NCBI GenBank assembly: GCA_000004985.1 | Contig: GG738882.1 | Direction: 5' to 3' (one strand) | Length of the DNA stretch: 64,000 nucleotides | DNA from: Naegleria gruberi | Lineage: Eukaryota | Shown: in pieces, positions 14,376 through 51,787 of the stretch | Position numbering within the stretch: the stretch's first letter is position 1 | Layout: the number at the start of each line of letters is the position of its first letter | The notes under the pieces: model-generated | What the model saw: the letters and a program-made list of their open reading frames with translations, nothing else | What the model was told of the DNA's origin: nothing | The model's database searches: none | Made by a program: the position numbers and the translations under genes

Positions 14376-14412
14376 GTTCTCAAATGTTGTTCGTTTCATG
14401 GTTGAATAAAAA

Positions 14413-14530
14413 GACTACAGCACCACAGGTTCCCAAGTTGTCTCCAACCTCAGTACTGATGTGGCTCGACGATGCTTAACTTCTCAAATCGGACGGGATG
14501 AGGTGCATTCATCGTGATATGGCCGTAGCC
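14413..14530 (-). rRNA. 5S ribosomal RNA gene (copy 1, minus strand)
   Basis: rc of 14413..14530 reads GGCTACGGCCATATCACGATGAATGCACCTCATCCCGTCCGATTTGAGAAGTTAAGCATCGTCGAGCCACATCAGTACTGAGGTTGGAGACAACTTGGGAACCTGTGGTGCTGTAGTC. 118 nt. Matches the universal 5S consensus: helix I end pairing, CCGTCCGAT, GAAGTTAAGC, AGTACT, GGGAA. A T-run terminator follows on the transcribed strand (plus 14408-14412 AAAAA). Confidence 0.92.
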
Positions 14531-15203
14531 ATTCAATATCTTAAAATGTGAATAATAAATCATAGCCATTCATTTCCTTAAATTAAGGTTTATCAACCAA
14601 CCCTTTTTGGTAAAGATCGATAAGAAAAGTACAAATTGGAGAGATGTTTATTAGAAATTACTTTTGAAATTATTCAGCTTTCTTTTTAGATAAATCCAAC
14701 CATCCTAATCCAAACTGATTCAATAAATCATCAATAACTTTCTCTCTACTGGACATGAATGGTTCAATGTAACAATTATAAACAAAGTGAGCTCCACCTA
14801 AATGATGATTAATATTTAAATAATTCGAATAATATTATTACAAAATTTTCGAATAAATTTACTTACCAAAGTTTGTATTAACTTTAAAGATCAACCACAA
14901 CAAGAAGAGAATTTTAACTTCAAAATAGAAAGGAATCCAATAAATTAACCATTCGAAAAAGCATTCGAAAGTGATCACAAAAGCATAAACTGACCAATAA
15001 GTCAACTAATTCCGATCATTAAATAATTAAATAATTTAATTTACTTACCCATTGCTTATCATCTTCTTCTTCCTTTGTTTTCAAAGCTTGGAATGATCTA
15101 AAAGCAGGATACAATGCTCCGAGAAGATTAGAAATTGATCGAGAGATTAAAAATCCAAACAACATTTTTTTTAATTTATTGATGTGTTTGAAAGGTGAAA
15201 GGT

Positions 15204-17206
15204 TTAGAATAAATCACTGTATGCTGATGGAGTTGTTACAACTTGTGCTGCAGCTTGATAATTTTCATAAGAACCTGCGTCAAAAGAATTGTTTGGGAAT
15301 TGATCATAGGTTGGTGGTGGTTGTTGTTTCATATTCTTTGTGACACCTTCTAGATAGCTTAACAGAGCTGATAGGACAGCATCATTTTGAGAGACTGGAG
15401 AGCTATTGGCTGATGCATTACTATTTCTATCGGTTACTATCATTTCTTTTTGAGGAAGTGGGAAGTTGTTTTGTGGCATTAGATTTCTTTGAATTACTGC
15501 TTCCATTTCGTCAATTAGTGGTTTATATGCAGTAGATAGCCGCACATATCGTTTGGCAAGTGTTGTAATTGCTCGGTAATCCTTCTCCAAGAATGTAAAA
15601 TAATCCACAGTAATAACCTTTTTAGATGATGTGGTAATTGAGGAAATCCTAGGTCTTAATCCTCTCTCAATTAATTTACAAATGTCCAAATGATATTGAC
15701 AAGTTGTGGTAATACTAGCTAGTATTGTAGAGAGAGAATATCTGTAATTTCACAAGTCATTAAGAACTTGGTATTGAAAAATACTTACGGAAATAGTTCA
15801 TGTTCAGTCATTAACGTAATTTTGAGTGCAATCTCTTCCACAGCACTTGGAGAAATATCAGGTATTCTACTCAAGAATAATAATTTGAATCCCTCCACAA
15901 TAATGAATGAATGCATATGTTGAGATTTGAAAAATGTCTCCGAGTGACAATCAACCATCATTTTGATTAAACGTTGACGATAGCTAGAAACTGCATTGAA
16001 CACTGCTTCAATAACTTGTTTGAAAAGCATGAAATTTTCAGTTGTGACAACAGCGTTTTTCAAATAGTCCCATGTACCAGGCAACAATATCTCAGAAATT
16101 GACTTGTCCAGAGAAACTTCCAAAATCTTTGGTAACCCCTTGATGAAAATGGCAAACTCATTTGGGGAATGTTGCTCAGCTCCACCCACAACAAAAGCTC
16201 TATGTTTCTCTAAATTCTTCTCATATAAATCCAAAGTTCTGTTTTGATTCTCCGAAAAGTAGAAATCTCCAAATAATAAATAGTATCTAGACCTTGGTAA
16301 ATCTCCATATCCAATAAAGTATGCTCCCATATTGTGACAAGCTCCAACAAAGTAAAAGTTTGAAAAGTAATCTGTCGAGAGTTTGGCAATTTCCAATTCA
16401 CATCTCTTGGCTGTGACTTGAGCAAAGCTCAACTGAGCAGTAATTTGTTCAGATAAAGCCAATGCTGACAAGTAAAAGGCAAATAAACACTTCATCTCAG
16501 CCTCTGTTGTGATAAATTCATTGGGAGGAACAATAATTTGTGGTGAACCATTCAAAAATTGTTGTAAACATGTCTTTACAAAAAATTCAAATTTGACCCT
16601 TTTCAAAACGGGATGTCCACTACAAAGGAAAGTATAATACAATTCTACCACATTCATTGGTGAAACTGTACTTGACATTGTTTGTGGAAATTGTGGTGAC
16701 TGACCGTTTATGTGAGTTGGTGAAGTGTACGGAAGAGATGATGATGGGATGGTGGTTGGTAAATTTAGAGGCATGCTATTGAGTAATTGATGTTGTAGTT
16801 GATTGTCAATTGAGGGAGTACTATTTGATTTGTCAGTATTATTGGACGATGATGACTTTTTCCTTCTCTCCGTTTTGGTTGGATAAGCGTCCGAGCCTTT
16901 TCCTCGTTTTCTTGGTGTATTGTACTATTTGTATGAGATTGAAGAAATGATGATTATGATGAATACTTACTGTACATTTGAGTCCTCTGGCTGAACATTT
17001 AGAGCATTCAGGAAGCTTTTTATCACACTTATATAAAACGTGTAATCAATGATATGTTGTAACTACTACTAGACACCTACCTTTTTGTGTAGAGATCGAC
17101 ATTGAATGCAGGCTATTGGGTGAAAGCCTTCCGGAGCAGTTAATCCATCTCCAATATTATAATCTTCATCCTCTGATAATGAAGCTTGACTTTCGGTTTT
17201 CTTCAT
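15204..17206 (-). CDS. Zn(II)2Cys6 binuclear-cluster (fungal-type) transcription factor, 4 exons
   Basis: Exons complement(17081..17206), (16971..17027), (15789..16924), (15204..15741). Introns are 53, 46 and 47 nt (GTAGGT, GTAAGT, GTAAGT donors; AAG, TAG, CAG acceptors). Spliced N-terminus MKKTESQASLSEDEDYNIGDGLTAPEGFHPIACIQCRSLHKK|CDKKLPECSKCSARGLKCT|YNTPRKRGKG... gives a perfect CX2CX6CX6CX2CX6C cluster spread over exons 1-2. In-frame TAA lies upstream of the ATG. The middle region resembles the fungal-TF middle homology domain. Confidence 0.8.
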
Positions 17207-17339
17207 CTTGCTATTCTTGTTGTTGTATTCGTTTTATGTGATATGTCTCTTGTTGCTATCTTTTTACTATTAGAGAGAATTAATACTTGTTCTTCTTGTG
17301 ATGTTGAGCATCATACACAGGATTAAAAAAACGTTCCTC

Positions 17340-17400
17340 TTCTTCTTATTGTTATTTTGTTGTTGTTGTTGTTCCTATTGTTGTTCTTATTGTTGTTACT
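17340..17400. repeat. imperfect (TTG/GTT)n microsatellite in the 5' flank of the Zn2Cys6 gene
   Basis: cttcttcttattgttattttgttgttgttgttgttcctattgttgttcttattgttgttacttc, read directly. Confidence 0.6.
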
Positions 17401-17974
17401 TCTCTCACAAGAAAGCACCTTGCTGGTTATAACGGCTGGTCAGAGATTTCAGCTGTTTTTTTCTCTCTTAAATAACAGTATAAAACCAGATGATACACAA
17501 ACCTCGGTCTCCTTCCTAATAAAACAATTGCTTGCATCCTTCCATCATCATCTCTCAACACTTTTATCTTTGCATTCCATCATTTTTTCGATATTGTCAT
17601 CATATTCTATCAAGCAGTGAGCCATTCTACTTGTTCAACTCCTCTCTTTTGAAAAAAAAGTGTCGGTGTTATTTTACGCTTCTGTTTGAGGCAGCATTAA
17701 ATAAAGTCCTCGCTCTCTGCCTATCGGATGATTGACACAATTAAGGATAATGTAAAATGTGTCCTCGTTGATTGCTTGTTAGGAAGTTACTGTCCTTCTT
17801 GGATTTCATTTGCTAGTTACTGTAAAGTTCAAGAGATGGTGGGATGGTTGTAAATTTAAATACAGGAAATAAGAAGTATTATGAAAACAACCTAAAATAA
17901 TAATGAAATCAATCACTTGTTGAAAGATGTATGAATTACACCTTCAGTGAAAAGTCACTTGAACTGGCTTACTG

Positions 17975-18489
17975 ATGTTTGAAAGCTGTCAAAAGTTAAA
18001 AAATCAATCAAAAAAAATAGACATCAAAATGGTTCTTTGTGCTGGTGATGAAATTCAATTAACTCTTGTCAGAGGAAAAAACTTGAAAGCTGCAGATTCG
18101 AACAATCTCAGTGATCCATTTGTGACTTTTGAATCAAGCACTGGACAAAAATCCAAATCAAAAACCATCAAGGATACATTGAATCCGGAATGGAATGAAA
18201 AATTCACATTTAAATTGGATAAAAGTGAAAATTTCATGCTTGTTATGCAAGTTTTTGATTTTGATTTAATCAAAAATGTATGTAAAGATTAATTAATTAT
18301 ATTAGAAATATTATTCGAAACTTTGTGAAAATATTTGAATTGACTTTCCAATAGGATTTTCTCGGATCAACAACAATTACAATTTCTGATGAAAAGTATG
18401 ATATTGGAAAGGAACATGAAACTGAATTACCACTCCATGCAACAACCACTGGATCATTGGTCATTCGTTTCACCATTGTCAGGAAATAG
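17975..18489 (+). CDS. single C2-domain protein, 2 exons
   Basis: Exon 1 17975..18277 (alternative start ATG 18029 = MVLCAGDE...), intron 18278..18354 (GTATGT...ATAG), exon 2 18355..18489. C2 signature LTLVRGKNLKAADSNNLSDPFVTFES...LNPEWNEKFTF...DFDLIKN|DFLGSTTITISD. The track's minus ORF 18297..18509 is spurious. Confidence 0.7.
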
Positions 18490-18530
18490 ACAATTTCTTG
18501 TACACACATTTAATAATTGAATAAAATTAT

Positions 18531-20441
18531 TTAATAAAAATATGCTTGCTTCTTTGAATTATAAGTTTCTTCATCTAGACAGACCAGTGAACAGTCTCTA
18601 CATTTAGTAAAGCATGCAACAATATCCTCTGGATTAGTGACAAGTACAGGAATTGAATCACTAAGAGGAACTCCCTTTTTGAATGCTTCTGGTGCGTACT
18701 TGACTAAAAGCTCTTTGTTTAATCTGTAAAAGAAATAGGTTGAGACAGGAGTTGGGTTAACAAGGAACCATTGCAAAACTTCTTCTTGCTGTTTCACATC
18801 AAATAAGGAGACAATTTCCATTGCTCTACTGTGTCCAATATTTTGTGAATTATGAGCAATTCCTTCTTTTAAGAATGTCCTACACCACTTTTTCCTTACT
18901 TCCATATCACAATAATTACTTAAGATTTGTGATCCCAATACAAATGCATAAATGTCTGGTTGTTTTCTTGCTAGTTCCAAAATCTTTTCCATATTTTCCT
19001 CATAGTTTTGATAGGTAAAAGGTGGTAATCCCCATGCCTGTAACACCTTTGATTGTATTGAATTATTCTCATCCCTAAATTGTAAAAATAAAGATGGTTT
19101 GGTATCGGCTATCATTTTTACTATTCTTGGATCTTCAGTCACCTTGGTTGAAAAGTTAACTATTGATTGAGGATTGATTGCAAAAAGTTTCTTTGCAAGA
19201 GGTCTGCAATCTTTCCAGAAGGCCGGCAAATAAGTGATGAGGCTTGGATTTTTCATCAATATCATTTCAACAATTTCCTTGTCTTGTAATAGTTCTTCTT
19301 GATTCAAAAATGCAGGGAAAGATGTCATATCTTCAATTTGATTGATTCCTTTGATTACCAATTTGCGGAAACCAGGGGTAGAGTAGGGAATATATTCCAA
19401 AGAGTAAGGTTTGGAAGAAACAGCAATTTCTAATAATTCTTGATGATTTCTCAGAAAATTAGAACTGAGATATTTGATAGCAAATCCATTTTGTTTTACA
19501 GCTTGAGTGACAACCTGCTTATCTTGCAAAAACTTGGTGCAATATTTTAACATTTTACCATGTGAGTTGACCAATCGAAGGCAAAAATCTCTATCTTCCA
19601 AGAAGGATTGAGGTATTTCCTTACCAATCTTGTAGTAAATTTTTGCAGCCTTTACAAGAAAATCTGGATCATTGAATTTTGGAGAGATTGCACTAATGGT
19701 CTTGGCAATTTGTTGAGGAGAAAGATCACGAGCTGTAAAATGTTTCAATAAACAAAGAGCTAATGGAGTGGATGTCACACCTGCAGGTAGTCGATTAAAT
19801 ATTTGTCTTCCACAAGCAATTTTACAATACTTTTGGAAACTATCTGCCTCAATTGTAAACATTGATGAAGGTGGATCGAATAGAGCATCCCATATATTAG
19901 TTTTTGTATTGTAATGGCCACTTGTACTAATAACAAGGTTATTATATTTCCCATTCGGAACTAGGACAATGTTATCACTAATACTAACAAGGTTATTCGT
20001 CTTTTCCCATAACTTGATTGGATATATCCAGTGTGCAGGATACGAATAATATGAATAGCTGGCAACATTCATATCTTCATCGAAATGTCTCGTCATCATC
20101 AGTAACTCTTTAATAATAAATGGAATTTTACAATTTAATTCAGTTTCAACTCTTTCAAATTCCTGTTGATATCGTTCTCTATATTCATCATCACAATCAA
20201 TTAATTGAAATTTATCAATCAAATGTTCATTATAAATAGTCAAATACTCCCGAAACACTCTACGAAAATAATTTAAAAAGGTGGCAACAAGTTGTCGATT
20301 CGTCACTCTAAAATTGCTCGATTCTCTGAATGGAATAAAACTGAATAATAATTCTAAAATTTCCGATGGTAAATCAAGTAATTTATAAAGATGATTGGAG
20401 GTGGTGGAAATTGTTGTGATCATAGTTTGATCGTGTTGCAT
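18531..20441 (-). CDS. F-box domain protein
   Basis: Single 636-aa ORF with ATG. N-terminal F-box-like LLDLPSEILELLFSFIPFRESSNFRVTNRQL. Rest unrecognised. Confidence 0.5.
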   Translation of the reverse strand: MQHDQTMITTISTTSNHLYKLLDLPSEILELLFSFIPFRESSNFRVTNRQLVATFLNYFRRVFREYLTIYNEHLIDKFQLIDCDDEYRERYQQEFERVETELNCKIPFIIKELLMMTRHFDEDMNVASYSYYSYPAHWIYPIKLWEKTNNLVSISDNIVLVPNGKYNNLVISTSGHYNTKTNIWDALFDPPSSMFTIEADSFQKYCKIACGRQIFNRLPAGVTSTPLALCLLKHFTARDLSPQQIAKTISAISPKFNDPDFLVKAAKIYYKIGKEIPQSFLEDRDFCLRLVNSHGKMLKYCTKFLQDKQVVTQAVKQNGFAIKYLSSNFLRNHQELLEIAVSSKPYSLEYIPYSTPGFRKLVIKGINQIEDMTSFPAFLNQEELLQDKEIVEMILMKNPSLITYLPAFWKDCRPLAKKLFAINPQSIVNFSTKVTEDPRIVKMIADTKPSLFLQFRDENNSIQSKVLQAWGLPPFTYQNYEENMEKILELARKQPDIYAFVLGSQILSNYCDMEVRKKWCRTFLKEGIAHNSQNIGHSRAMEIVSLFDVKQQEEVLQWFLVNPTPVSTYFFYRLNKELLVKYAPEAFKKGVPLSDSIPVLVTNPEDIVACFTKCRDCSLVCLDEETYNSKKQAYFY

Positions 20442-20585
20442 TTTTTTTGATCTTGAAAATTCAATTTTTTAGAGATGAACTTTTTGTAAATTTCAAAAAT
20501 GCAATGGAACTTGGAAATTTGCTAAAAATCGTGTTTCTTGAATGTCAATTAGAAAATTGAAAAATCAAGAATAATTGAAAGTTTA

Positions 20586-22295
20586 TTAGAGTTTTGTCTT
20601 TTTGTACATGGACTTGAGTGCCTTTTGTCTAAGATCTTCCATTTCTTCAACGGATCGTTTGTTTTCTCCTCTATCAACTTTGATTCGGTCAGTTTCGTAA
20701 ATGGAGGCAAGATTTTTCTTTACTTCATCCTTTCTAAAGTTCTTTTCATAGGTTGCTAGATTGTGGACCTTAGCTCCTAAGGCAGTGGTACAATTTCTTG
20801 AAACCAAATTAGAAAGTTCAGCAATTTGTTTCAACAATTCACTTTCGTTTTCAATTTTTTTGTACTTTTTCAAATATTGTTCAAGAATGAAAACTTCAGA
20901 TCTGCAATCATAACAATGATCCATTCCTTCAACTTGCACGTTGTGTGGATAATAGTGAACTCTTGTTCTGGTATTGAAATAAAACATTTGACTTTCGTAT
21001 TTTGCAGTATCGTATGGAATAGTTCCACAATCTTTTGAACATACTAATCTTGTTTCGGTTGTTGTTTGAGGTCCCCATACTGGCAAGTAAATATCTCCCT
21101 TCAAATATTCATAGCTCTTCTCAGATTGTGTATCATAAGGTAGACGAAACTTGAGCATGGACATTTTTGGTTTAATTGTCAAATGCCAATTCATTTGTGC
21201 TTGATTATCCCACTTGACACACTTTTCAATCTCCTCACGGTGCTCTACTGTTTGATTTTCATTTCCCTTCTCTGGTTGAGCTGTTCTAATATCACTAATA
21301 AACAACACATTTTTATCAGCATACTTTGCAGCCAACTCATCAGTAAAGAAATCATTCACAATTGTAATCTTATCTGTTGGTTTACAAACAAATGGACTTG
21401 GATCTACAAGTACGAAACTCAAATCAGGAAATAAATCACTCAAAAAGTTTGTGTGGTGGCCAGGAGCAGCACCTGCATAAACAACAATTGCACCAGGATA
21501 ACCAAATTCAGTTAAGAATTCAATTTCTGACATGAGTAATTTACGTTGACCCCAGTGAATGACACTCTTCAACTCTGACTTTCTTCTACGGTAAGTTTCT
21601 TGAGGATCGTGTGGTTGGAGTATACGATTGGTTCTATCGAATGGTTTCTCTTCAATGTGTGGATCATTGTAGTGCAATATTTGTTCACAATGTGGATTTG
21701 ATTTCTTATCTGGCCATTCGTAATTTTCATATTGTTTCTTTCGGTAGGAGAGAACGAATTGATTGGGAGCTCTGTTGAATTGATGGTAGAATCGAACTCT
21801 TCCTTGCGGTTGTTGATAGGAAGATGTATAGGAATGTGGAGGAGAATATCTATCCTCATCCCTTTTTCTGAATCCTGCTTGTCTGATATAAGAAGAAGAA
21901 GAAGCAGAAGCATGATAATATTCTTGTCTACCATATGAAGGCCGTTCTTCTCTTTCTTGATAATGAACATGAGAAGAATGGAAAGGCCTTATGTTGCCAG
22001 CATTTCGTGCCTTAATTGGTTTTCTATCCTGATAAGGGGACGCAGAGGAACCAACACTGAAGCGTTCTTCTTCCTCATGATATTGGTGTTGGTAATTTCG
22101 TTGTTTATTATCTGAACGATAAGAAGAATTATCAACAACAAAATTATCCCTTCTGGAAGAAATGTATTGCCTATTGCTGGAGCTGCTAAAAGTTGAACGA
22201 GTTCCATCTGGTTGTTGAGGAGTATCACATTGTCGAGAACGTTGGAGGTTGTTGTTGTGATTATTGTTGGTTTGAGGGTGGCCACGATTGTTCAT
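20586..22295 (-). CDS. cap-specific mRNA (nucleoside-2'-O-)-methyltransferase of the poxvirus VP39 type, with a ~250-aa R/S/Y/Q-rich low-complexity N-terminal extension
   Basis: Single exon, 569 aa. The C-terminal ~320 aa align block-by-block with vaccinia VP39 as I recall it: HWGQRKLLMSEIEFLT vs YQGQLKLLLGELFFLS; AIVVYAGAAPGHHTNFLSDLF vs [21 protein letters not shown] (SAM-binding motif I); VLFISDIRT vs IILISDVRS; MLKFRLPY vs SLKWRCPF. N-terminal region is N/Q/R/S/Y-rich (…SYRSDNKQRNYQHQYHEEEERF…SPPHSYTSSYQQ…). Confidence 0.85.
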   Translation of the reverse strand: MNNRGHPQTNNNHNNNLQRSRQCDTPQQPDGTRSTFSSSSNRQYISSRRDNFVVDNSSYRSDNKQRNYQHQYHEEEERFSVGSSASPYQDRKPIKARNAGNIRPFHSSHVHYQEREERPSYGRQEYYHASASSSSYIRQAGFRKRDEDRYSPPHSYTSSYQQPQGRVRFYHQFNRAPNQFVLSYRKKQYENYEWPDKKSNPHCEQILHYNDPHIEEKPFDRTNRILQPHDPQETYRRRKSELKSVIHWGQRKLLMSEIEFLTEFGYPGAIVVYAGAAPGHHTNFLSDLFPDLSFVLVDPSPFVCKPTDKITIVNDFFTDELAAKYADKNVLFISDIRTAQPEKGNENQTVEHREEIEKCVKWDNQAQMNWHLTIKPKMSMLKFRLPYDTQSEKSYEYLKGDIYLPVWGPQTTTETRLVCSKDCGTIPYDTAKYESQMFYFNTRTRVHYYPHNVQVEGMDHCYDCRSEVFILEQYLKKYKKIENESELLKQIAELSNLVSRNCTTALGAKVHNLATYEKNFRKDEVKKNLASIYETDRIKVDRGENKRSVEEMEDLRQKALKSMYKKTKL

Positions 22296-22529
22296 TTTTC
22301 GAAAGACGAAATCAATAAATATTTGATTGAGGCGCCACCTTACATGTTTTTTGTCTAAGGATGTTGAAAGATATTCAAGATGGTAAATAGTTGGGCATTA
22401 TGATTATCGTGTTGATTTAAATTCTAATAATTTTGGATGATATTTTCGCACAGCTTTGTTTCGTAATATATTTTCATAATAATTTCACACTAATTTTCCT
22501 TCTATTGAAAAATGTTGATGAATTAACTA

Positions 22530-26383: not shown

Positions 26384-26455
26384 AAAATTTTTATCAACTC
26401 AATTTTATTGTTTACAATTTGTCGAAATACTAACGTTGCATCGTTCCTCGCAACT

Positions 26456-27301
26456 CTACACAATATTAAGTCTGGCATAATGATCAGATATTTTAAATTT
26501 TGGTAATGAAAATATCCTGGCAGATTCTGAAACGTGATGAATATGTTTGATTTCAATAACTTTCCTTAATTGTTGGAATAATTCTAAATCATTCATATTT
26601 GGAACTTTATGTCTCAAAATACTAAACAATAATTCTAATCCATTAGTTGAAATGGTTGAGGTCATAACTTGATAATCAAAACTACTATCAAAATCACATT
26701 CTTCATATAAATATTCTTCATCTTGACAATTACACATCACATTAAACACAGAACTAACCTGACTACAATCAGAAAGTGAATCAGAATCATTCTGTTCATA
26801 ATCTATACATTTCTTCAACATTACCCAAAATCTTAAAATTGAAGCAACTCCTATTTTTGTTTGATCTGATATAAATGTCGTACTATTTACATATCTGATA
26901 ACCTTTTTCATATAATATATTTTATCTATTAATCCATAGTTATCTTCATCATGACATAAATTATAAAAAAGTGACATATATTTTAAATGTCTATAGAGAT
27001 TTGAAACTAATTGTAACTCTTCAGATGGCAATAAACGTTTCAGACGTATTTGATTTGCTAAATGATGTTTAAGAGTTTCTGTATTAGATGACTTTTCAAT
27101 AATATCAACAATATTTTCAAAATCTAATTGTGCATCCAGTATTTGGTAAACATCTTCACCCTTAGTCATCAAATATCCTTCTGATATTTTAGAAATTGGA
27201 GGAACACTTTCAATTAAGTTTTTTTTTAGATCATTTTTGATCTTTTGTAATGCAGATATTAATTTTGGATCTATCAAGTGTAAAACAGCATCCAAATTCA
27301 T
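26456..27301 (-). CDS. hypothetical protein; may be a separate gene or the 5' part of the exonuclease gene across the gap
   Basis: 281-aa ORF (MNLDAVLHLIDPKLISALQKIKNDL...). No recognised domain. Stop at 26456 lies 86 bp upstream (in gene orientation) of the gap. Confidence 0.3.
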   Translation of the reverse strand: MNLDAVLHLIDPKLISALQKIKNDLKKNLIESVPPISKISEGYLMTKGEDVYQILDAQLDFENIVDIIEKSSNTETLKHHLANQIRLKRLLPSEELQLVSNLYRHLKYMSLFYNLCHDEDNYGLIDKIYYMKKVIRYVNSTTFISDQTKIGVASILRFWVMLKKCIDYEQNDSDSLSDCSQVSSVFNVMCNCQDEEYLYEECDFDSSFDYQVMTSTISTNGLELLFSILRHKVPNMNDLELFQQLRKVIEIKHIHHVSESARIFSLPKFKISDHYARLNIV

Positions 27302-27328
27302 TTCATCTCTAACAACAACATCACTTTT

Positions 27329-27434
27329 TGGAGTGAGTATTCAACTCACTAAAGTTTATTGTAAACAATACACCAAGAAATAGGAAAATTTGTCTAAAAA
27401 ATTTTCAACATTGAGCAAGCTTAATACTTTGATT
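27329..27434 (+). repeat. repeat R1 copy A (106 bp)
   Basis: ggagtgagtattcaactcactaaagtttattgtaaacaatacaccaagaaataggaaaatttgtctaaaaaattttcaacattgagcaagcttaatactttgattc. Identical at 105 of 106 positions to 28304..28409. Confidence 0.85.
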
Positions 27435-28261
27435 CAAGGAGAGTAATTTTTTCAACCAGAGCAAGAAACAGCACGATAAACCTAGCACCAATTCTCTTCC
27501 GACCAGACATCCGGTTCCTTCATCTTCAACATTCGGACTGTTTATAATAATTGTTAAGTCAACAGAACACATTAACACTTTCAAAACAGTTGTTCTTCTT
27601 CGGAAAGCTCATATAGTCAAGGTGATACACAACAACAAGTATCCTTTTTCTTGATGGTTGCAAAAGTGAACGCTAAAGGATAGAGTTCAACCATACGCAA
27701 GTAGATAAGATTATTTCCCAAGAATACTTACTTCGGAATAAGTGGAGACAACTCATCACTTCCACCTTAGGCTCTCTAGTCTTTTATGAAATTCATGAAC
27801 CTTAAGACTGATGAACCAGCAAGTCTCCATCTCACCTAATAACAGTAACTTGATTGCTAACAAAGGATTCAGGGCTTCAATCAATCCTTCCGAATATATT
27901 GGACATAATGAGTTATGGGCTAGATGTTTTAAATTTGAAAATATTATCAGCCAAGCATATAATCTTGAACACACACCGCCACTTCCACATGTTATTAATA
28001 TTCCTGTTGACCTCCAAAATTGAATACCCTTAATGATCCATTCACAGCGAAACCTATTTATTCATCACGATTAGTAATCATTGACTTGATGTTCTCCAGA
28101 GAGGTGATGTTTTGATTTAAGCTAATGCATGGATTCAGGCTCCTTGAAGGCACATTCTCCATTTATATGGAATAATTAGCTTGTATGGTTTATCTAGATA
28201 GTTGAGTTTGTGGTTAAGTTTTAGCCAATCACGTATCAAAAGAATTAGGTTGCTAGTATGG

Positions 28262-28303
28262 GCTCATAATTTCCGAATTTATTGGTGTATTGTTGGATAA
28301 ATT
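28262..28303 (+). repeat. repeat R2 copy 1 (~42 bp)
   Basis: gctcataatttccgaatttattggtgtattgttggataaatt occurs at 28262..28303 and again at 28909..28950. Contains ttggtgtattgtt, the reverse complement of aacaatacaccaa inside R1, forming a 13-bp inverted repeat with the adjacent R1 copy B. Confidence 0.7.
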
Positions 28304-28409
28304 GGAGTAAGTATTCAACTCACTAAAGTTTATTGTAAACAATACACCAAGAAATAGGAAAATTTGTCTAAAAAATTTTCAACATTGAGCAAGCTTAATA
28401 CTTTGATTC
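28304..28409 (+). repeat. repeat R1 copy B (106 bp)
   Basis: One mismatch (A vs G at position 6) relative to copy A. Confidence 0.85.
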
Positions 28410-28496
28410 CCCACCACCCACCCCAACACTCGGTGAGTATATTAATTCTTTTGATACGTCTTTATTGTTATTTTATTAGTGGTGTTATCAAGGACT

Positions 28497-28665
28497 TTGT
28501 GGTGCTTAAAAATCTGCGCTCAATAGGCCAACATAGAACTGGGTTTTAGGGTTGGTGAGGGGATTTTTAGGTGTTATAGAGGTGATCAAATTTGATGCTT
28601 GATGAAGATCTGCGCTCAATAGGTCAACATAGAACTGGGTTCTAGGGTTGGTGAGGGGATTTTTT
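28497..28665 (+). repeat. two tandem ~97-bp units (R3)
   Basis: Unit 1 ...tgcttaaaaatctgcgctcaataggccaacatagaactgggttttagggttggtgaggggattttt... and unit 2 ...tgcttgatgaagatctgcgctcaataggtcaacatagaactgggttctagggttggtgaggggatttttt.... About 90% identical over the ~58-bp core. Confidence 0.75.
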
Positions 28666-28908
28666 GGAGTGTCAAAGACTCTGTGGGTGTTTGAATAATG
28701 GTTGTAGTATTGGACGAGGTAATTGTAATGGAATTGATTCTATTACAATTAGGCAAGATTTTCTTGAAAATTAATTTTCAAGTTTTTCATCTTGTCAACC
28801 ATTATTCGGTTTGCTAGTATTTCAAGGGTAATAGATTAGTAGAAATTGGTTTTGTGGTTGTTCAGTGTTGAAAATAATCTATTACGTGCGTGTAGTAGAA
28901 TAAAGCTC

Positions 28909-28950
28909 ATAATTTCCGAATTTATTGGTGTATTGTTGGATAAATTCGAA
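28909..28950 (+). repeat. repeat R2 copy 2
   Basis: gctcataatttccgaatttattggtgtattgttggataaatt, identical to 28262..28303. Confidence 0.7.
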
Positions 28951-29123
28951 TTAATTCGAAAATGGTGTTATAATAGCAAGATAGATAATTCCTCGCAAAG
29001 ATACAACTTCATTATCCATCATTGGATTCCTTAATCTTTTGAGAATGTGTATATAATCTTCAACATGTTACATTGCAAATTAATAAAAACAAGATTGAGA
29101 ACAAGTAATTATACTAATGGGTA

Positions 29124-29909
29124 TTAAAGCTCAGGGACTGTTTCACCTTTAAGGTGATTCAGCCTTGAGACCTGCTTTAATGGATATAAATCTTTATTAG
29201 CATCAACATGATACCACTCAGTATAATATTGTTTCATATAATTTTCGACTGTATCAATTTTAAATTCTCCATCCGCGCAACTACCAACTATTTCAATGTC
29301 ATTCCTATTCCATTTCTGAGTTATTTCTTGCAAATATTTCAATACCTCAGCCTGAGCATTCTTTCCTGGTAAATTAAATGCAGCTACAGGAAGAGAGAAA
29401 TAACCAGCTGTATCTATCAATTCAAAAACTACCACTTTTCCACATAAATCAATATTATCTATTTCTAATTGTAATAATTCTAAAAATGATTTAGGACCAT
29501 TTTCAAATCCAAAAATATTTCCCTTCACACATGTCAATAAAGATCGCACGGTAACAATATCCCAACTAATTAAACTAAACGAAGTTTGATTTTTCTTAGA
29601 TGTGAATTCTTTGGTCAGTTTCTCGATACTCTCTTCAGTATAAAGATGGCCATATAATAGTCCCTTGTTCCAGGTTTTAAGTGTGTTCTTATGAGGAGCT
29701 TGTATATTGCAACCATTGGATCCCCTGAAAATATCTATTAGTTTTTCTGATGAATAAAATCTAGCAAACTTCCAAAAATTCTTTACACATTGTGGATACT
29801 CTTTAGTTGTGTTGGGATGTATAATTCGTTCCATTTCATCTTTAATTCTAATGAGGTGAAAATCAAGATCATTTCCATTTTTTGAATAATTGTCAATTAA
29901 ATTCACCAT
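29124..29909 (-). CDS. hypothetical protein next to the repeat cluster (possibly transposon-derived)
   Basis: 261-aa ORF MVNLIDNYSKNGNDLDF.... The open frame extends about 120 nt upstream of the ATG. No family recognised. Placed between a repeat cluster and a 1.4-kb gene-free AT-rich region. Confidence 0.3.
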   Translation of the reverse strand: MVNLIDNYSKNGNDLDFHLIRIKDEMERIIHPNTTKEYPQCVKNFWKFARFYSSEKLIDIFRGSNGCNIQAPHKNTLKTWNKGLLYGHLYTEESIEKLTKEFTSKKNQTSFSLISWDIVTVRSLLTCVKGNIFGFENGPKSFLELLQLEIDNIDLCGKVVVFELIDTAGYFSLPVAAFNLPGKNAQAEVLKYLQEITQKWNRNDIEIVGSCADGEFKIDTVENYMKQYYTEWYHVDANKDLYPLKQVSRLNHLKGETVPEL

Positions 29910-31337
29910 TTGTTGGTACAGTTCAGATTTGCTTTCAGCTTCTTCAACTTTTAGTTTTTTAATTTTTTTGTCTAACTCCTTTTTTGTGACCCAAGTTGCA
30001 AACAGAACAGAATTTTACAACCATGTCAGCCGTGAGAAGTTTGTTGATTTTTTCTTGATGTCATCTTGAAACGTCATTAATGATGATGATGATGTTTCGT
30101 GAGTTATTTTTTTTTTGAAATATTAAACAAAAAAATAGAGGGTAATTTTACTAATATATTCAAGAATTATTTTCTCAATGAATATATGGAGAAAACAATC
30201 TAAGTACTCAGATATTTCTATAAAACATGTATTGATCAATATATTCTAAAATTGTTATTTTGAATACTATGAATTCATAGTAAATTGGTGATTGGAAATT
30301 TTTAGTTTTTCAGAAGAAGTAAATTTAAGCCACTTTCCGAAAGAACAATAAAAAACCTTCTTTCCAAATGAATATATTAATTGACCTCACCTCCAGTCAA
30401 AAAGAGAGATGTAATTACCAATAGATTCTATAGTGAATTGATGAAAAAGCGAAATCCTTGTGTAAGGTTGTATTGTTTGTTGCCTTAAGGATGTAATTTT
30501 TTTGAAAAGTATTTGTAGCCAAACTTGGTATCGTTCTGTTAGTCATGTTCATTCCTAGTAAATACCATTGTGGCACTGTTCAACGTTTCACATAATATGT
30601 AAAACAATGTAGACTACAAACTCTAAATATTAGAAGACTTGAAACGATTGTGCAATATATTTATTTTTTGTTAGAAATGAATGTGAAATTTCTCTGCTGA
30701 TAAATTGCTGGTCAAAACAAGCCTACCCTTCAGGCAAGCTCTTTTTCATACATCCTTTATCTGGCACCAGAGAAATTTTTAAAACAACAGAAGGATGATG
30801 TAGAGACCCTATTGTGAAATGTTTATATGTTTAAGTCATTATACACGACCTCTGTTAATATAGTAATCGTTTTCAAAAAATTTCCATAATAGAAATTCCT
30901 GCCAAAAATATGAGTGGTAATTTCCAAATACTCAATATTCCAAACTATAGAAGTGGCACCAACAAGCTCTTTACAATACGTAGTAAACCACCTATTCAAC
31001 ATATATTGAGTAGATGAGGTTCTGAGTTGGTTGTGCAACATGTTAATTTGTTATTGGAAACTTTATTTATTAATATCATTATAAATACAAAACATAACAC
31101 CTTCTAAATTTCAAAGGAAGGTGCACCAAACGTGAATATGAAGGGCTCTTCAGATGAAGGTGTGAAGTTAAATGTACATGAATTCCGAGAGCAAAGTCTG
31201 GTACCTTTGGTAAGTAACACGAGTTTCAGGCCATTTATGATCTCTATGTTCCCCCCTGTGTTATCATGTTAAAGATTGAAAAGACTAATTTGGATGACTA
31301 ATAAATAACCGAAATAGAGCAGAAAAAAATTGGCTAC

Positions 31338-31979
31338 ATGATGCTGTATCCACGAGTATTGAATCATCCTCTATGCATTGTACTCTTCCTATTGTCCTTG
31401 TTTCTAACTGTGACTCTTGTCCATACCATTTCCTCCGAACCAAATTCCAACATTGAAATGTTAATTTTCACACCAAAAGAACCTTTCACAACAGTTGACA
31501 TTAGAGGTTCTGTCTCTTGCACACAAGCCAATGATTATGGATTTGAAATACCGAGTGATTATACTGTGGATAGCATGGAAGTCACATACATGTTTACAAA
31601 ATTTTATCCATTCAGTTCAGATCGTCAAGATATTACAATTTATGTAAAGATTGGAAGTGTGGCTAATTCTACTCATTATGATGCAAAAAAAGAGTCCATT
31701 TCCACACCACTTGTAATTGAGAGCTCATCTCAGGAAATACCCATTCGAAACACAACTGTTTATTTCCAAGTATTAGGAACAGGAATGTGCAAAGATAAAT
31801 TGGAGAATTATTACAAGGTTACCTTCAAGATTTATCCAACAAGATTTCCTTGGTGGGCAACCTTACTGATAGTTTTGGGAGGAATGATTGGATTATTTAG
31901 TGTGTTTGCATTATTGACCATTATTGGACACAAGTATAAAGAATGGAAACGTAGGCAGCAATATACTGAGAATATTTGA
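31338..31979 (+). CDS. hypothetical type I membrane protein (signal peptide plus one C-terminal TM helix)
   Basis: ATG 31338. N-terminal hydrophobic LCIVLFLLSLFLTVTLV. C-terminal WWATLLIVLGGMIGLFSVFALLTIIGHKYKEWKRRQQ. Confidence 0.4.
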   Translation: MMLYPRVLNHPLCIVLFLLSLFLTVTLVHTISSEPNSNIEMLIFTPKEPFTTVDIRGSVSCTQANDYGFEIPSDYTVDSMEVTYMFTKFYPFSSDRQDITIYVKIGSVANSTHYDAKKESISTPLVIESSSQEIPIRNTTVYFQVLGTGMCKDKLENYYKVTFKIYPTRFPWWATLLIVLGGMIGLFSVFALLTIIGHKYKEWKRRQQYTENI

Positions 31980-32107
31980 TAGTTTAAACAATTTTGGGAG
32001 TTAAATATGGAATAAATGATTGAAATATTTTAAGTGAGTTTTGGTGAAATAATGTTAACTATTCGATCGTCTGTAGAATTAGTAGGTAGACATTGTTCAT
32101 GATGGTT

Positions 32108-32692
32108 TTACACTAAAGAGAAATTACCCAAATAAATATTGTGAAATACTGTGACAAATTCCAAATTTCCATCTGAGGAACTATTTTCCTTCAATTCAAA
32201 CTTTGATGGAATTTCAAAAATACGAGTTGGCTTAACAACTAATCCAGAGAAAGGCGTGATTTCTTGAGCATCCATTTGATATATGATATCGACCAATATT
32301 GCATTTGGGCAAAACTTTACAAAGTGACCTTCAATAACTCTAACAACATCCAAGCTAACCTTAAATAATACTCCAACCAAATTGAGAATTGAGAAAGTCA
32401 TTGAGCAAGTACTTTCAACTCGACTTGGAATCTTGCTGAAAATTTCAATTGGCCACTCCATTCGTCCATTATTATTACTTAACAGGAATGTTGATTCGAC
32501 ACATTCATTCATGGTCACTTCTCTAACTACGAAAGGAGCTTCCTTTCCATCCAATTTTATGATCAAATCCTTGTCAAATCGAACTTCAAGTAAGGGAGCA
32601 GAGACCAATCTTTTCAGAACAGAACGTGCATAAAATCCGTTTTGTTGTTTGGCAGAGGAAGAAGCAACATCACTTGATTTGTTTGATGGCAT
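32108..32692 (-). CDS. hypothetical protein
   Basis: 194-aa ORF with ATG. No family recognised. Confidence 0.3.
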   Translation of the reverse strand: MPSNKSSDVASSSAKQQNGFYARSVLKRLVSAPLLEVRFDKDLIIKLDGKEAPFVVREVTMNECVESTFLLSNNNGRMEWPIEIFSKIPSRVESTCSMTFSILNLVGVLFKVSLDVVRVIEGHFVKFCPNAILVDIIYQMDAQEITPFSGLVVKPTRIFEIPSKFELKENSSSDGNLEFVTVFHNIYLGNFSLV

Positions 32693-32893
32693 TTCATATG
32701 CAAGAATAGTTTTGAATTAGTTTGAATTAGTTTTTTTCTTGTTTTTGAAAAATGTTTGTGAACTTTTGTGAATTTAAAGGTTTTTATTTTGCAAAATCAC
32801 GTTTTTGAACCAAAAATATCATTTCAATCACGTTTGTGTTTATAATAGAACAGAAGACTTGTATTGAGATATTGTGTCTCATTCCAACGTTTT

Positions 32894-34486
32894 TTATTTC
32901 TTCCTTTTTTCAACTTCAGTAATAGTTGCTTGCAAGAGTTTTTCCCATTGTGAATCTTCATCCCCAAACTTATTCTTAAATTTGTCAACGACCTCAATAG
33001 CCTCATTCTCATAACCCAAAATGATCATTGGTCTAATAACCTTATTGGTGATGAACAATAGCAATTTGTTGGGTATTGATTTTTCATAATAGGAGAGAAC
33101 TTGATAATTTTGTAAGGCCTCTTCCAATCGTCCAGCTCTGAGATGATTCAAACACTTTGTAACAATTAGGTCAACATGAGTTGGTACTCTTGAATAGTAT
33201 TCCACTTGATCCAATAACATTGTTGAATCCAATAAAGAAGGAGCTTCATTGATGCATAGATATTTAACTCTGGCGAGTATTTGAGGGAAAAATTTGAAAT
33301 CCTTGATTCTTGAGTGTGGTTTCTTATTCTTGAAAATTTCGAATAATTCCATACGCTTCAAATCTTCCATTCTTGAAGGTGCTTGAGAATTTGCCAAGAT
33401 ATTCAAACATTGAGTGGTACAAGAGATGTCATTAGTGCAGATCAGTTTGACATAGGGAATGTATGGATTTTTGGGAGCTCTCTTACTCTCTTCTTCAAAT
33501 ACTTTCAACATTGAACCATCTTTAACGAACTCTTGAAAGATGTTATACATGCCACCTAAATGAATTGGAAGATCTGTTTCCAAATCGTGGTACCAATCAA
33601 ATTCATCTTCAGAATAGACCTTCTCTAAAATATCTGTCCACGACTTGTCAATATCTCCTTCAGATGGTGTGGTATACTTTTGTTTCACAACTGGATACAA
33701 TTCAATAAATCTATGCATCAATGCTGTTGCATTTTGTAAATTCATTCCCAGTTCCAAACAGATTAAATTAACCATGCACATGAGTTTTTCTCTGGTTGTC
33801 ACACTTTCGATATTCACAAATTCTCTCAATAATAGTTCAGTAATTGCTGAATAATAAGTCACTTGATCATGCAACACAAGATCTTTTCCCTCGATATCTA
33901 TTCCACTCGAAAGGAGTACATGCAAATTCTTCAAATCTTCAAAACTAAACCACTCTTGAAAAATTCCCTTAATCAATAAACCATTAAAAGTTGAAAAATT
34001 TAACATTACATAAATGGCCTGTCTCTTCATCTCATCTAAATTCTCAATTAATTCATATTCATCTTTTTCCATTGTTCTGTTTATAATTGTATAGAAAGAA
34101 AAGTTTCGTATGGTACTTTGTACCAATTCGTTAAAAATACCAGTAGGAAGAGCTTTATCAGGGAATTCTCTTTGATTCTCTTTGATTTTCTTGTTGAGTT
34201 CATCTAAAGCAAGATGAACTGTGGTTTTTTCAAATGCAGGAGAAGAAACCATGTTTTTAATACCAGCTATTTGTTTGACAAGTTGTTCTTTGGAAGTTGG
34301 TGTTGCCAATGTGTTAACAATATCAGTGTTGACAAATGTTGCAAATTCCCGATCATGATAATTTGTTGTTGATTGCTGAGCAGAGTGATTTTGAAAATGG
34401 AGGAGGGTAGTTATTGATGATTTGTTCATCATTACTCTCTTCCTACTACTACTACTACTGAGAAGAGAGCCAAGGTGTTTAAACAT
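32894..34486 (-). CDS. hypothetical protein with predicted mitochondrial presequence and helical-repeat character
   Basis: 530 aa. N-terminus MFKHLGSLLSSSSSRKRVMMNK is presequence-like (basic, Ser-rich, no acidic residues). Remainder predicted alpha-helical. No specific family recognised. Confidence 0.3.
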   Translation of the reverse strand: MFKHLGSLLSSSSSRKRVMMNKSSITTLLHFQNHSAQQSTTNYHDREFATFVNTDIVNTLATPTSKEQLVKQIAGIKNMVSSPAFEKTTVHLALDELNKKIKENQREFPDKALPTGIFNELVQSTIRNFSFYTIINRTMEKDEYELIENLDEMKRQAIYVMLNFSTFNGLLIKGIFQEWFSFEDLKNLHVLLSSGIDIEGKDLVLHDQVTYYSAITELLLREFVNIESVTTREKLMCMVNLICLELGMNLQNATALMHRFIELYPVVKQKYTTPSEGDIDKSWTDILEKVYSEDEFDWYHDLETDLPIHLGGMYNIFQEFVKDGSMLKVFEEESKRAPKNPYIPYVKLICTNDISCTTQCLNILANSQAPSRMEDLKRMELFEIFKNKKPHSRIKDFKFFPQILARVKYLCINEAPSLLDSTMLLDQVEYYSRVPTHVDLIVTKCLNHLRAGRLEEALQNYQVLSYYEKSIPNKLLLFITNKVIRPMIILGYENEAIEVVDKFKNKFGDEDSQWEKLLQATITEVEKRKK

Positions 34487-34669
34487 TTTTTATTGAATTG
34501 AATTATAATGTGGATATGTTCGTACGAGTTCTTTGGTTTACAATATGTTCCAAATTGATTAGTTGCTGTAATGAATATTCGAAATGTGCTTCATAAGGAA
34601 TGATATATAAACCTTAATTTAAGGAAATGAATTGATATGATTTATTGTTCACATTTTCAGATAATGAAT

Positions 34670-34787
34670 GGCTACGGCCATATCACGATGAATGCACCTC
34701 ATCCCGTCCGATTTGAGAAGTTAAGCATCGTCGAGCCACATCAGTACTGAGGTTGGAGACAACTTGGGAACCTGTGGTGCTGTAGTC
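34670..34787 (+). rRNA. 5S ribosomal RNA gene (copy 2, plus strand)
   Basis: GGCTACGGCCATATCACGATGAATGCACC...GGTGCTGTAGTC followed by TTTTTTT (34788-34794). 118/118 identical to the reverse complement of 14413..14530. Confidence 0.92.
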
Positions 34788-51749: not shown

Positions 51750-51787
51750 ACTTTTTTTATGTTATTAATATTATTTTCCCATTTTAT

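Follow-up and report, generated by a model that had tools for sequence, protein, structure and literature searches.

Two identical, inverted 5S rRNA genes of Naegleria gruberi and the probable duplication behind their shared flanks

Upstream promoter elements are known at 5S rRNA genes of Neurospora, S. pombe, Arabidopsis and Drosophila, and Tyler reportedly described a TATA box ahead of the Neurospora genes in 1987. Rooney and Ward are said to have concluded in 2005 that the dispersed 5S families of filamentous fungi, S. pombe and Yarrowia evolve by birth-and-death together with purifying selection. Other eukaryotes contain dispersed 5S genes and 5S-derived SINEs as well. In N. gruberi, 279 5S entries were listed on 117 scaffolds, with a TATA box, an internal control region (ICR), a T-run terminator and no linkage to the rDNA, and no TFIIIA was found (Feng et al. 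2012, PLoS One 7:e36878, PMC3369914). The 18S-5.8S-28S rDNA of N. gruberi is an extrachromosomal circle. For tRNA loci, previous work showed that mutation runs 7-10 times above the genome average and that flank divergence is highest within ~20-40 bp (Thornlow et al. 2018, PNAS, PMC6130373).

The two 5S genes and their neighbours

We analyzed a window of 64,000 nucleotides of nuclear DNA from N. gruberi scaffold_38 (about 256-320 kb), in which neighbouring genes exactly match EFC42059, EFC42068, EFC42069 and others, and the RNR gene (38565-41003) matches Naegleria gruberi at 100% identity, so that a fungal context is wrong. A sequence-only reading of this DNA had claimed two identical, inverted 5S genes ~20 kb apart, which our results confirmed. 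Copy A lies at 14413..14530 on the minus strand (match span 14412-14530) and copy B at 34670..34787 on the plus strand (match span 34670-34788), each with a score of 105.4 bits against Rfam RF00001. The 118-nt bodies are 100% identical (118/118) and are inverted with a spacing of 19,989 nt; the longest perfect identity is 128 bp (-5 to +123), and the inverted repeat around the copies, I1, comprises 198 nt at 95% identity. Direct reading of the letters gave a presumed Pol III terminator for each gene, a T5 run for copy A (14408..14412, minus strand) and a T7 run for copy B (34788..34794, plus strand).

Both genes are catalogued members of the known dispersed set (~279), and finding them here is ordinary: in Table S1 of Feng et al., copy A is R33776 (scaffold_38:270411-270527) and copy B is R33491 (scaffold_38:290673-290789) (PMC3369914). 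The coordinates in that table gave a median gap of 34 kb, and 41% of the gaps between adjacent entries did not exceed 25 kb. Furthermore, 42% of the 5S copies lie no more than 25 kb from another one, and therefore the A/B pair is not special. The statement 'tandem arrangement: yes' in the same paper (PMC3369914) was rejected, as it goes against the paper's own coordinates, which show no short-period arrays. The earlier description of solo 5S units dispersed among protein-coding genes, and not in an rDNA array, agrees with the spread of entries over 117 scaffolds and with the extrachromosomal rDNA.

A 188-aa ORF (13809..14375, plus strand), the final ~38 codons of which fall within the duplicated unit described below, converges on copy A and is possibly an unannotated orphan membrane-protein gene. 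Its sole homologue is the wild-strain orthologue, at 95% identity and with 3/3 indels in-frame; it has no Pfam match and no paralogues. The site of copy A is a convergent strand-switch point. The inner neighbour of copy B is a 530-aa gene (EFC42068.1, NAEGRDRAFT_70147; 32894..34486, minus strand, exact match), which has a pN/pS of 0.12 and a pS of 0.032 relative to its orthologue on the wild-strain contig L093, and the outer neighbour is a D123-family gene (EFC42069.1, NAEGRDRAFT_50779; 34906..36120, minus strand, Pfam PF07065, exact match).

The shared upstream flank

As the sequence-only reading had noted, ~70 bp of upstream sequence is common to both copies at ~90% identity. This flank occupies 14531..14605 on the minus strand at copy A (-1..-75) and 34595..34669 on the plus strand at copy B (-75..-1), with solid homology from -1 to -63 (14531-14593 and 34607-34669, respectively). 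Identity is 58/63 from -63 to -1, 65/75 from -75 to -1 and 19/75 farther out, and the homology is random past -75. The 23-mer AACCTTAATTTAAGGAAATGAAT occurs in the window at the two 5S upstream flanks only, with ~0.01 occurrences expected by chance. The flank of copy A holds the palindrome CCTTAAtTTAAGG, the folding of which is no stronger than that of shuffles (z = 0.14). A, B and L093 do not differ in the block from -63 to -38, ATAAACCTTAATTTAAGGAAATGAAT, and 8 variable sites lie from -37 to -1. The only invariant stretch in this proximal flank of all three is a TATA-like core, ATTTATT, at -30..-24 (34640..34646, plus strand, in copy B; 14554-14560, minus strand, in copy A), and in 12 independent 5S upstream regions the A+T maximum, 0.80, fell in the -30..-26 bin.

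Our 5S comparison comprised three independent loci of the N. gruberi lineage (A, B and C). The wild sequences came from short contigs of metagenomes, in which a 118-bp repeat could in principle give assembly artefacts; L093 is anchored in unique genes at both ends. Locus C (L084 = L096), which adjoins the orthologue of EFC43308, from a different scaffold, carries a 5S gene that is 117/118 identical, with flanks unrelated to those of A and B (their local alignment scores fell short of the shuffle mean). Among these three loci, therefore, the upstream element belongs to A and B alone, and it is probably no general promoter. In a more distant organism, the flanks of 11 5S copies were mutually unrelated. 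Together with homology that runs ~150 bp downstream and a proximal 37 bp diverging at ~20 times background, locus C leaves the previous interpretation of the ~70 bp as a conserved promoter unsupported. Nor would an upstream element be unusual for 5S genes, as had been stated, given that a TATA box was already published and that such elements are not unusual elsewhere.

A narrower hypothesis is that the upstream stretch, or its distal 26-bp block with the palindrome CCTTAAtTTAAGG and AAGGAAATGAAT, is a selected, PSE-like Pol III promoter element ahead of the TATA-like box. The invariance of the block beside a variable proximal segment would fit this idea, as would its spacing to the TATA-like box at -30, which resembles that of external Pol III promoters, the presence of AAGGATTCCTGAAAT at an equal distance (~-50) at locus C, and that of AACCTTAAT and AAGGATTCAGAAAT upstream of tRNA-Arg. 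Such an element would matter in N. gruberi, where TFIIIA was not found by Feng et al. However, the invariance of the block is not significant, as 0/38 differences are expected at ~0.7% background and P(0/26) = 0.19 at ~6% paralogue divergence. In addition, the block as a whole is absent from locus C, tRNA-Ser is without the motifs, the motif matches come from 2-3 independent loci, and the limits of -63..-38 were picked after inspection of the data. We consider a selected element of this kind unlikely.

Downstream homology and the 20-kb segment

The T-run had been reported as the only sequence common to both copies downstream, but two more blocks were found. Block I3 (33 nt, 97% identity; local alignment score of 61 versus a shuffle maximum of 35) lies at 14259..14291 on the minus strand at copy A (CACAATTATCCAAATTCTGACACTTTCAAATGT), where the duplicated unit ends distally at about +154, and at 34814..34846 on the plus strand at copy B. 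Block I7 of copy A (TATGGCAGTAAGCAAACAAATCAT..., 14304..14333, minus strand), part of the ancestral duplicated unit, matches I7' of copy B (34849..34878, plus strand) over 30 nt at 90% identity (score of 47 versus 35). The order of I3 and I7 relative to the gene is opposite at A and B, which L093 and L094 explain as alternative deletions from one long form. Wild-strain metagenome contigs revealed that locus B is structurally polymorphic downstream: in haplotype L094, I3 follows another T-run and copy-A-like sequence that is lost in NEG-M, and L093 and L094 together restore a continuous ~300-bp A/B homology. The ancestral common unit extends from about -75 to +154 (~350 bp). Because A/B homology continues ~150 bp past the gene, we read the likeness of the flanks as a footprint of duplication.

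This extent of homology also bears on a spread of the copies via an RNA intermediate (a retroposed, SINE-like 5S transcript) or as mobile-element cargo. Scatter over 117 scaffolds demands some dispersal mechanism, and 5S-derived SINEs and dispersed 5S genes elsewhere offer a precedent. However, the A/B homology reaches 63-75 bp into untranscribed sequence upstream and continues for ~150 bp past the terminator, neither of which an RNA copy would contain, and no terminal repeats, poly-A or convincing target-site duplication were observed at the A/B boundaries. The flank blocks have no further occurrence in the window and the adjacent 188-aa ORF has no paralogues, and we regard either route as extremely improbable for this pair.

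The sequence-only reading had also judged it plausible that ectopic homologous recombination between the two inverted copies repeatedly flips the 20-kb segment, which would leave both orientations in populations. Mechanistically this is possible: the 198-nt arms are 95% identical with a 128-bp perfect core, in most eukaryotes arms of this length can on rare occasions recombine ectopically, and copy A lies at a convergent strand-switch point. Recurrent inversion nevertheless found no support and seems very unlikely, as L093, the sole wild contig over a junction (530-aa gene, 5S-B, D123), keeps the reference order, L095 and L094 fit the reference on their own sides, and in both strains the arm-specific differences (-12, -6 and downstream structure) stay with the unique neighbours of their own arm. 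Moreover, the 118-bp identity is common to all ~279 copies, which makes the pair unexceptional; N. fowleri and Willaertia have no 5S genes at the corresponding place, where synteny is too eroded to inform.

Strain divergence, origin of the pair and known systems

The wild strain has both loci, with the copy B orthologue on L093 (117/118 identical, 101 bits) and the copy A orthologue on L095 (115/115 identical). NEG-M and the wild strain diverge by ~0.7% overall, and differences between orthologues amounted to 1/233 in 5S genes, 11/70 in hot flanks and 28/3461 at remaining sites (Fisher P = 9e-11). Upstream of copy B, L093 differed at 0/38 positions from -75 to -38 and at 6/37 (~16%) from -37 to -1, so that the proximal 37 bp diverge at about 20 times background. 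At the tRNA-Arg locus, on a contig that is 99% identical, 73/73 positions agreed; the 5' flank (at the contig end) could not be aligned, and the 3' side carried a 10-bp indel. In the comparison of A with B, the body showed 0/118 differences versus ~7% in the flanks (P~2e-4), in agreement with the earlier claim that selection and/or homogenisation keeps the body steadier than the flank.

Instead of selection, ongoing gene conversion among A, B and other copies might keep the bodies identical, with spill-over tracts explaining the flanks. Bodies that are identical or 1 nt apart at loci with unrelated flanks are a classic signature of concerted evolution, and L093 has the copy-A state at 3/6 variable proximal sites (-37, -35 and -23). 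However, identity does not drop gradually from the gene, the nearest sequence having diverged most and the distal block least; the three A-like states could equally be ancestral, with three NEG-M-specific substitutions; and the hot zones at the A 3' flank and tRNA-Arg match no paralogue among those compared. Conversion in place of selection is therefore doubtful, although the two are not mutually exclusive.

Altogether, A and B probably represent one old ~350-bp DNA duplication, with the body frozen by selection, the flanks decayed, and the upstream likeness a footprint and not a required promoter. According to this duplication model, a segment from about -75 to about +154 would have been copied at the DNA level, in inverted orientation, 20 kb away, and well before the NEG-M/wild-strain split, because paralogue flank divergence is ~6-7% versus ~0.7% between strains. 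The 118-nt body would stay identical under strong purifying selection for the RNA and the internal promoter, possibly aided by gene conversion between the numerous copies. Flank decay would be quickest in the ~40 bp that border the gene at each end, by substitutions, small indels and deletions between short direct repeats, and by analogy with tRNA genes its likeliest cause may be Pol III transcription, which would leave unwound flanks mutation-prone. Alternatively, ectopic gene conversion could bring foreign sequence into the hot flanks. Based on sequence and literature, transcription most likely depends on a loose TATA-like box at -30..-24 together with internal A-box and C-box-like sequences and most likely stops at the T-run; the remaining common upstream sequence would be historical.

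The set of Feng et al. 2012 (PMC3369914) includes the very same genes, without analysis of flanks, duplication history or strain variation. As in the tRNA system (PMC6130373), the RNA sequence is conserved while flanks of ~20-40 bp diverge several-fold to ~20-fold above background. That study concerned tRNA genes of animals and Arabidopsis and did not mention 5S, whereas our comparison covers three loci (two 5S and one tRNA) in one strain pair, in which indels and rearrangements stand out as much as substitutions do. Systems of inverted-repeat-mediated inversion (NAHR) likewise have inverted arms, here with a 128-bp perfect core, around a segment, here of 20 kb, but at this locus a second orientation was not observed and the arms are short, being two of ~279 equivalent repeats. 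N. gruberi differs from the fungi with dispersed 5S families in belonging to another supergroup (Discoba, Heterolobosea), in having an extrachromosomal large rDNA, which makes 5S linkage to rDNA impossible, and in that no TFIIIA was identified. Nevertheless, it resembles them in its solo Pol III units between protein-coding genes, in near-identical bodies with flanks mostly unrelated between copies, in a TATA-like box near -30 combined with an internal control region, and in occasional young local duplicates with flanks still alike.

Identity and genomic context of the two 5S rRNA genes

A scan with the Rfam 5S covariance model (RF00001) gave full-length matches (model positions 1-120) at 14412-14530(-) and 34670-34788(+), each scoring 105.4 bits (threshold 38), and both features are genuine 5S rRNA genes. 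The 118-nt bodies of copy A (14413..14530, minus strand) and copy B (34670..34787, plus strand) are the same, and the copies lie in inverted orientation, their arms separated by 19,989 nt, as a sequence-only reading of this DNA had reported. Both satisfy eukaryote-type Pol III anatomy, with internal A-box and C-box-like sequences (AGTTAAGC at +50..57, which agrees with box A as given in PMC3369914, and GAGGTTGGAGACAACTTG at +80..97, with 2 mismatches to box C) and a T-run immediately 3' of the gene (T5 at copy A, T7 at copy B). The conserved body beside fast-evolving flanks provides indirect support that both copies would be transcribed and their RNA built into ribosomes. The 5S pattern had no match in IMG/VR, and a scan for bacterial promoters and terminators, a type irrelevant to a eukaryote, returned nothing.

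Previously, Feng et al. (2012) described 279 putative 5S genes in N. gruberi that are unlinked to rDNA and possess both a TATA box and an internal control region; the same study identified TFIIIB and TFIIIC in this organism, whereas TFIIIA was not found (PMC3369914). With the window start placed at scaffold position 256,001, the two copies correspond to scaffold_38:270411-270527 and 290673-290789 in Table S1 of that study (PMC3369914). We transcribed the coordinates of all 279 entries from PMC3369914 and found them spread over 117 scaffolds, with a median same-scaffold gap of 34 kb and no short-period arrays; the smallest gap was 462 bp, which involves a partial hit, and the next were 1.1-2 kb. 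Table 1 of the same paper enters 'yes' for tandem arrangement of these genes in N. gruberi, whereas the Table S1 coordinates show otherwise. Of the gaps between adjacent genes, 41% are at most 25 kb, and 42% of copies lie within 25 kb of another copy. Two genes separated by 20 kb are therefore typical, and the surplus of short distances suggests that local duplication has been frequent. The 18S-5.8S-28S genes of Naegleria occur only on an extrachromosomal circle (PMC5805870, PMC10586121). Together with the coding genes that flank both copies and an Rfam scan that found no other rRNA in the window, these data bear out the proposal that 5S genes are solo units dispersed among protein-coding genes. 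Copies A and B are an ordinary, already catalogued pair, and the dispersed, rDNA-unlinked genes with their TATA box were already known from 2012. The discovery value is, therefore, small, and the useful outcomes are corrective: the DNA comes from a heterolobosean amoeba, not a fungus, and a supposed conserved element is, very probably, a duplication footprint.

The fungal context had been implied by an earlier mention of Zn2Cys6 transcription factors, and it was contradicted by the protist-like homologues of the D123 protein (at most 40% identity) and by the ribonucleotide reductase (RNR), which is 100% identical to that of N. gruberi, 85% to that of N. fowleri and 76% to that of Willaertia magna. 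In addition, window ORFs exactly match N. gruberi EFC42059, 42061, 42068-42071 and 42074, which are encoded on a scaffold of 381,539 bp. The D123/CDC123-family protein (34906-36120, minus strand) has its nearest homologue outside Naegleria at only 40% identity, and its N-terminal WH2 actin-binding motif scores 22.6 bits, with a Pfam cut-off of 23.1. We also considered a giant-virus (Nucleocytoviricota) genome or insertion because the Pfam content of the window includes a VP39-type methyltransferase, RNR large subunit, UvdE, D123 and a divergent actin, besides F-box/DUF4116 domains, and because many ORFs are ORFans; virus-encoded 5S genes, if true, would have been remarkable. However, this origin was rejected, since RNR identity is ~55% with giant-virus MAGs as compared with 100% for N. 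gruberi and 85% for N. fowleri, the protein is nearer to human and yeast RNR1 than to those MAGs, the Mimiviridae early-promoter motif AAAATTGA is not enriched (20 found vs 23 expected), and ORF coverage is ~67% vs the ~90% coding density of the viral type.

The VP39-type (PF01358) methyltransferase domain (E = 4e-22) belongs to a 569-aa protein encoded at 20586-22295 on the minus strand, for which IMG/VR contained no close relative. The VP39 type also includes the cap-4 2'-O-methyltransferases of kinetoplastids, so vertical Discoba ancestry is as plausible for this protein as viral transfer. A bacterial-type glycerate kinase (PF02595; 41110-42306, minus strand) adjoins RNR, and the order MBOAT-RNR-glycerate kinase (36289-41003 plus the kinase) is kept in N. 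fowleri, where the kinase appears intron-split, but not in Willaertia. Dispersed repeats cluster at 27300-29000 in a gene-free 1.8-kb gap and comprise three pairs, with units of 108 nt (99%, 974 bp apart), 66 nt (92%, 96 bp apart) and 45 nt, together with a 27-nt unit present four times in both orientations. TRF detected no array there, and the sole Rfam match, a mir-87-like hairpin at 28495-28582 that stays below the threshold of 49 with 28.7 bits, is probably meaningless.

Between 15204 and 37758, 12 of the 14 ORFs of at least 80 aa lie on the minus strand, whereas plus-strand genes predominate to the left (4.2-14.4 kb), and the convergent gap that separates these runs is exactly where copy A lies. 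In kinetoplastids, which are relatives of Heterolobosea, Pol III genes mark strand-switch regions. Polycistronic transcription, however, is not known in Naegleria.

Upstream flanks of the 5S genes

The upstream flank that the sequence-only reading had described as common to both copies was confirmed, with agreement at 58 of the 63 positions nearest the gene (-63 to -1) and at 65 of the nearest 75 (-75 to -1); farther upstream, identity is random (19/75). Its interpretation as a conserved promoter element of ~70 bp was not supported in a comparison of three independent 5S loci of the N. gruberi lineage, as the 63-75-bp element is absent at a third locus, C, despite a 5S gene that is 117/118 identical. 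A scan with a 27-nt 5S-internal pattern yielded 13 metagenome contigs, 11 of which came from a more distant organism (26-31 gene differences, with mutually unrelated flanks). Locus C, on contig L084 (the same as ENA contig L096), carries the gene with 1 difference beside a hydrolase that clusters at >=90% with N. gruberi EFC43308 from another scaffold. Neither its upstream nor its downstream flank resembled those of A and B (local alignment scores below shuffle means), and flanks that are unrelated between independent copies are those of a dispersed organisation. The only upstream feature common to independent copies was an AT-rich, TATA-like stretch around -30..-20, and its core ATTTATT (-30..-24) is invariant in A, B and the wild-strain sequence of the copy B locus (contig L093).

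The distal block, -63..-38, shows no changes among A, B and L093, and it first looked significantly conserved (0/26 vs 8/37). This significance was gone once background rates were measured, because the orthologue background rate itself predicts an unchanged block, and at the paralogue rate of ~6% such a block has P = 0.19. A hairpin or cruciform role for the palindrome CCTTAAtTTAAGG was likewise rejected, since it folds no better than shuffled sequences.

Short motifs recur upstream of the Pol III genes: AAGGAAATGAAT at about -49 of 5S A/B (34595-34632), AAGGATTCCTGAAAT at about -50 of locus C (L096), AAGGATTCAGAAAT at -68 of a tRNA-Arg gene (51607-51630), and AACCTTAAT at both -60 of 5S A/B and -54 of tRNA-Arg. 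The tRNA-Ser gene is without them, and given so few loci the recurrence may be due to chance. TFIIIA was not found in Naegleria, and we considered an external promoter there, in which the 5S genes (and perhaps tRNA genes) would need a -50 motif, AAGGA..TGAA(A)T, and the TATA-like box; an external, snRNA-type Pol III promoter may have been grafted onto 5S genes, with the motif inside the invariant -63..-38 block. When coupled with a second proposition, that Pol III mutagenesis extends to 5S genes and to deep-branching protists, for which the basis would be a divergence in excess by ~20-fold within ~40 bp of 5S and tRNA genes, this joint reading strikes us as quite unlikely. The shared flanks of A and B very probably record a DNA duplication of ~350 bp, not a special promoter.

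Downstream blocks, the ancestral duplication and the inverted arms

The earlier claim that the two copies have nothing but the T-run in common downstream proved incorrect, as blocks of 33 nt (I3; 97%) and 30 nt (I7 and its counterpart I7'; 90%) recur 3' of both genes in swapped order, with alignment scores of 61 and 47 vs a shuffle maximum of 35. We rejected a more widespread repeat or a further small RNA as their source, since the blocks are present in the window at these two places only and Rfam gave no further matches. At copy A, they encode the C-terminus (…TFESVRIWIIV…MICLLTAII…) of ORF188, a 188-aa ORF at 13809-14375 on the plus strand; the reordered blocks at copy B lie out of frame and are non-coding.

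Contigs of a wild N. gruberi-like strain (ENA ERZ929261), reached via cluster members of neighbouring genes, were compared with the reference strain NEG-M. Contig L093 is collinear with 34978-32687 and spans the 3' end of the D123 gene, 5S-B and the gene for a 530-aa protein; L094 runs from D123 to the 3' end of 5S-B, and L095 covers 12942-14527 with ORF188 and 5S-A. In 5S sense, the structures are 5S-T-X-I7-spacer-I3-ORF at copy A, 5S-T-X-I7-T'-Y-I3-I7'-D123 in L094, 5S-T-X-I7-D123 in L093 and 5S-T-Y-I3-I7'-D123 at copy B of NEG-M. L093 and NEG-M copy B each derive from the long form by a simple deletion, with short direct repeats (I7/I7' and T/T') at its ends. Since L093 and L094 differ in structure downstream of 5S-B, the metagenome holds at least two haplotypes or strains. 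L093 also has 26 extra bases relative to 34487-34594, including TATTTCAGACAAT, between the start of the 530-aa gene and the 5S upstream flank.

When L093 was used, the homology between A and B was unbroken for ~300 bp at 90%, and because the wild-strain alignment restores this continuity, we place the ancestral shared unit at about -75 to about +154. A retroposed 5S copy or a 5S-derived SINE was rejected, since the homology reaches 63-75 bp into the untranscribed region upstream and continues for ~150 bp beyond the terminator, which excludes an RNA-mediated copy. Both loci exist in the wild strain, and the DNA duplication is thus older than the strain split.

The last ~38 codons of ORF188, which has two hydrophobic segments, overlap the duplication unit. 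It had no exact-sequence match in the N. gruberi protein set, was 95% identical at the amino acid level in the wild strain with three in-frame indels, and had no other homologue anywhere beyond that strain; it is possibly an unannotated orphan gene. Substitutions were too few for dN/dS to decide whether it is a real gene, and hence the donor locus.

The sequence-only reading also proposed recurrent inversion of the 20-kb segment between the copies. The arms share enough unbroken sequence (95% identity over 198 nt, including a perfect core of 128 bp) and could support rare ectopic recombination. Nothing points to its occurrence, however: the junction-spanning L093 has the reference orientation at junction B, from a single strain and a single junction, and in both strains the arm-specific flank states stay with the unique DNA that adjoins each arm. 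No 5S gene lies within +-10 kb of RNR in N. fowleri or Willaertia, and as MBOAT-RNR-glycerate kinase is the only synteny left with these genomes, the eroded gene order says nothing about inversion.

Divergence of Pol III gene flanks

Between NEG-M and the wild strain, ordinary coding and intergenic DNA diverges by 0.3-0.9%, and the 530-aa gene has pS 0.032 and pN/pS 0.12. By contrast, 6/37 sites (16%) differ in the 37 bp upstream of 5S-B (-37..-1), ~20x background (P = 4e-5 vs ~1%), and 5/33 aligned sites, plus indels, differ in the 37 bp downstream of 5S-A; the DNA downstream of 5S-B is rearranged. The 5S bodies differ at 1/233 sites. The hot flanks (11/70) stand apart from all other aligned sites (28/3461; Fisher P = 9e-11), and the DNA next to a 5S gene is the fastest-evolving in its neighbourhood. 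The earlier view that the body is better kept than the flank, by selection or conversion, was also supported by the paralogues, in which 0/118 body differences at a flank rate of ~7% (P = 2e-4) indicate that the body is constrained or homogenised.

A similar pattern was observed at tRNA-Arg(ACG) (51677-51749, plus strand), for which 51640-51787 was compared with wild-strain contig L098. The tRNA is identical at 73/73 positions, within a 1.75-kb contig of ~99% identity; its 5' flank could be aligned only as far as -3, with the divergent part at the contig end, and a 10-bp indel lies 3' of the gene. The comparison comprises two 5S loci, with the upstream flank of copy A missing from the wild strain, and one tRNA locus. 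Excess divergence in the immediate flanks of a conserved body, the mark of transcription-associated mutagenesis, was thus found at the 5S loci and again at tRNA-Arg. Divergence hot spots directly beside 5S and tRNA genes, between near-identical strains, are only a mildly new observation. They suggest that Pol III-associated mutagenesis acts on 5S loci as well, in a distantly related protist. The ~279 5S genes in each genome would make Naegleria convenient for measuring it.

Pol III-associated mutagenesis has so far been described for the tRNA genes of animals and plants, where the mutation rate is raised 7-10-fold, the most divergent flanks lie within ~20-40 bp, and strong purifying selection acts on the RNA beside them (Thornlow et al. 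2018; PMC6130373). That paper does not mention 5S genes, whereas the hot flanks in Naegleria include 5S loci, and the pattern at these three loci is best read as an extension of the known Pol III phenomenon.
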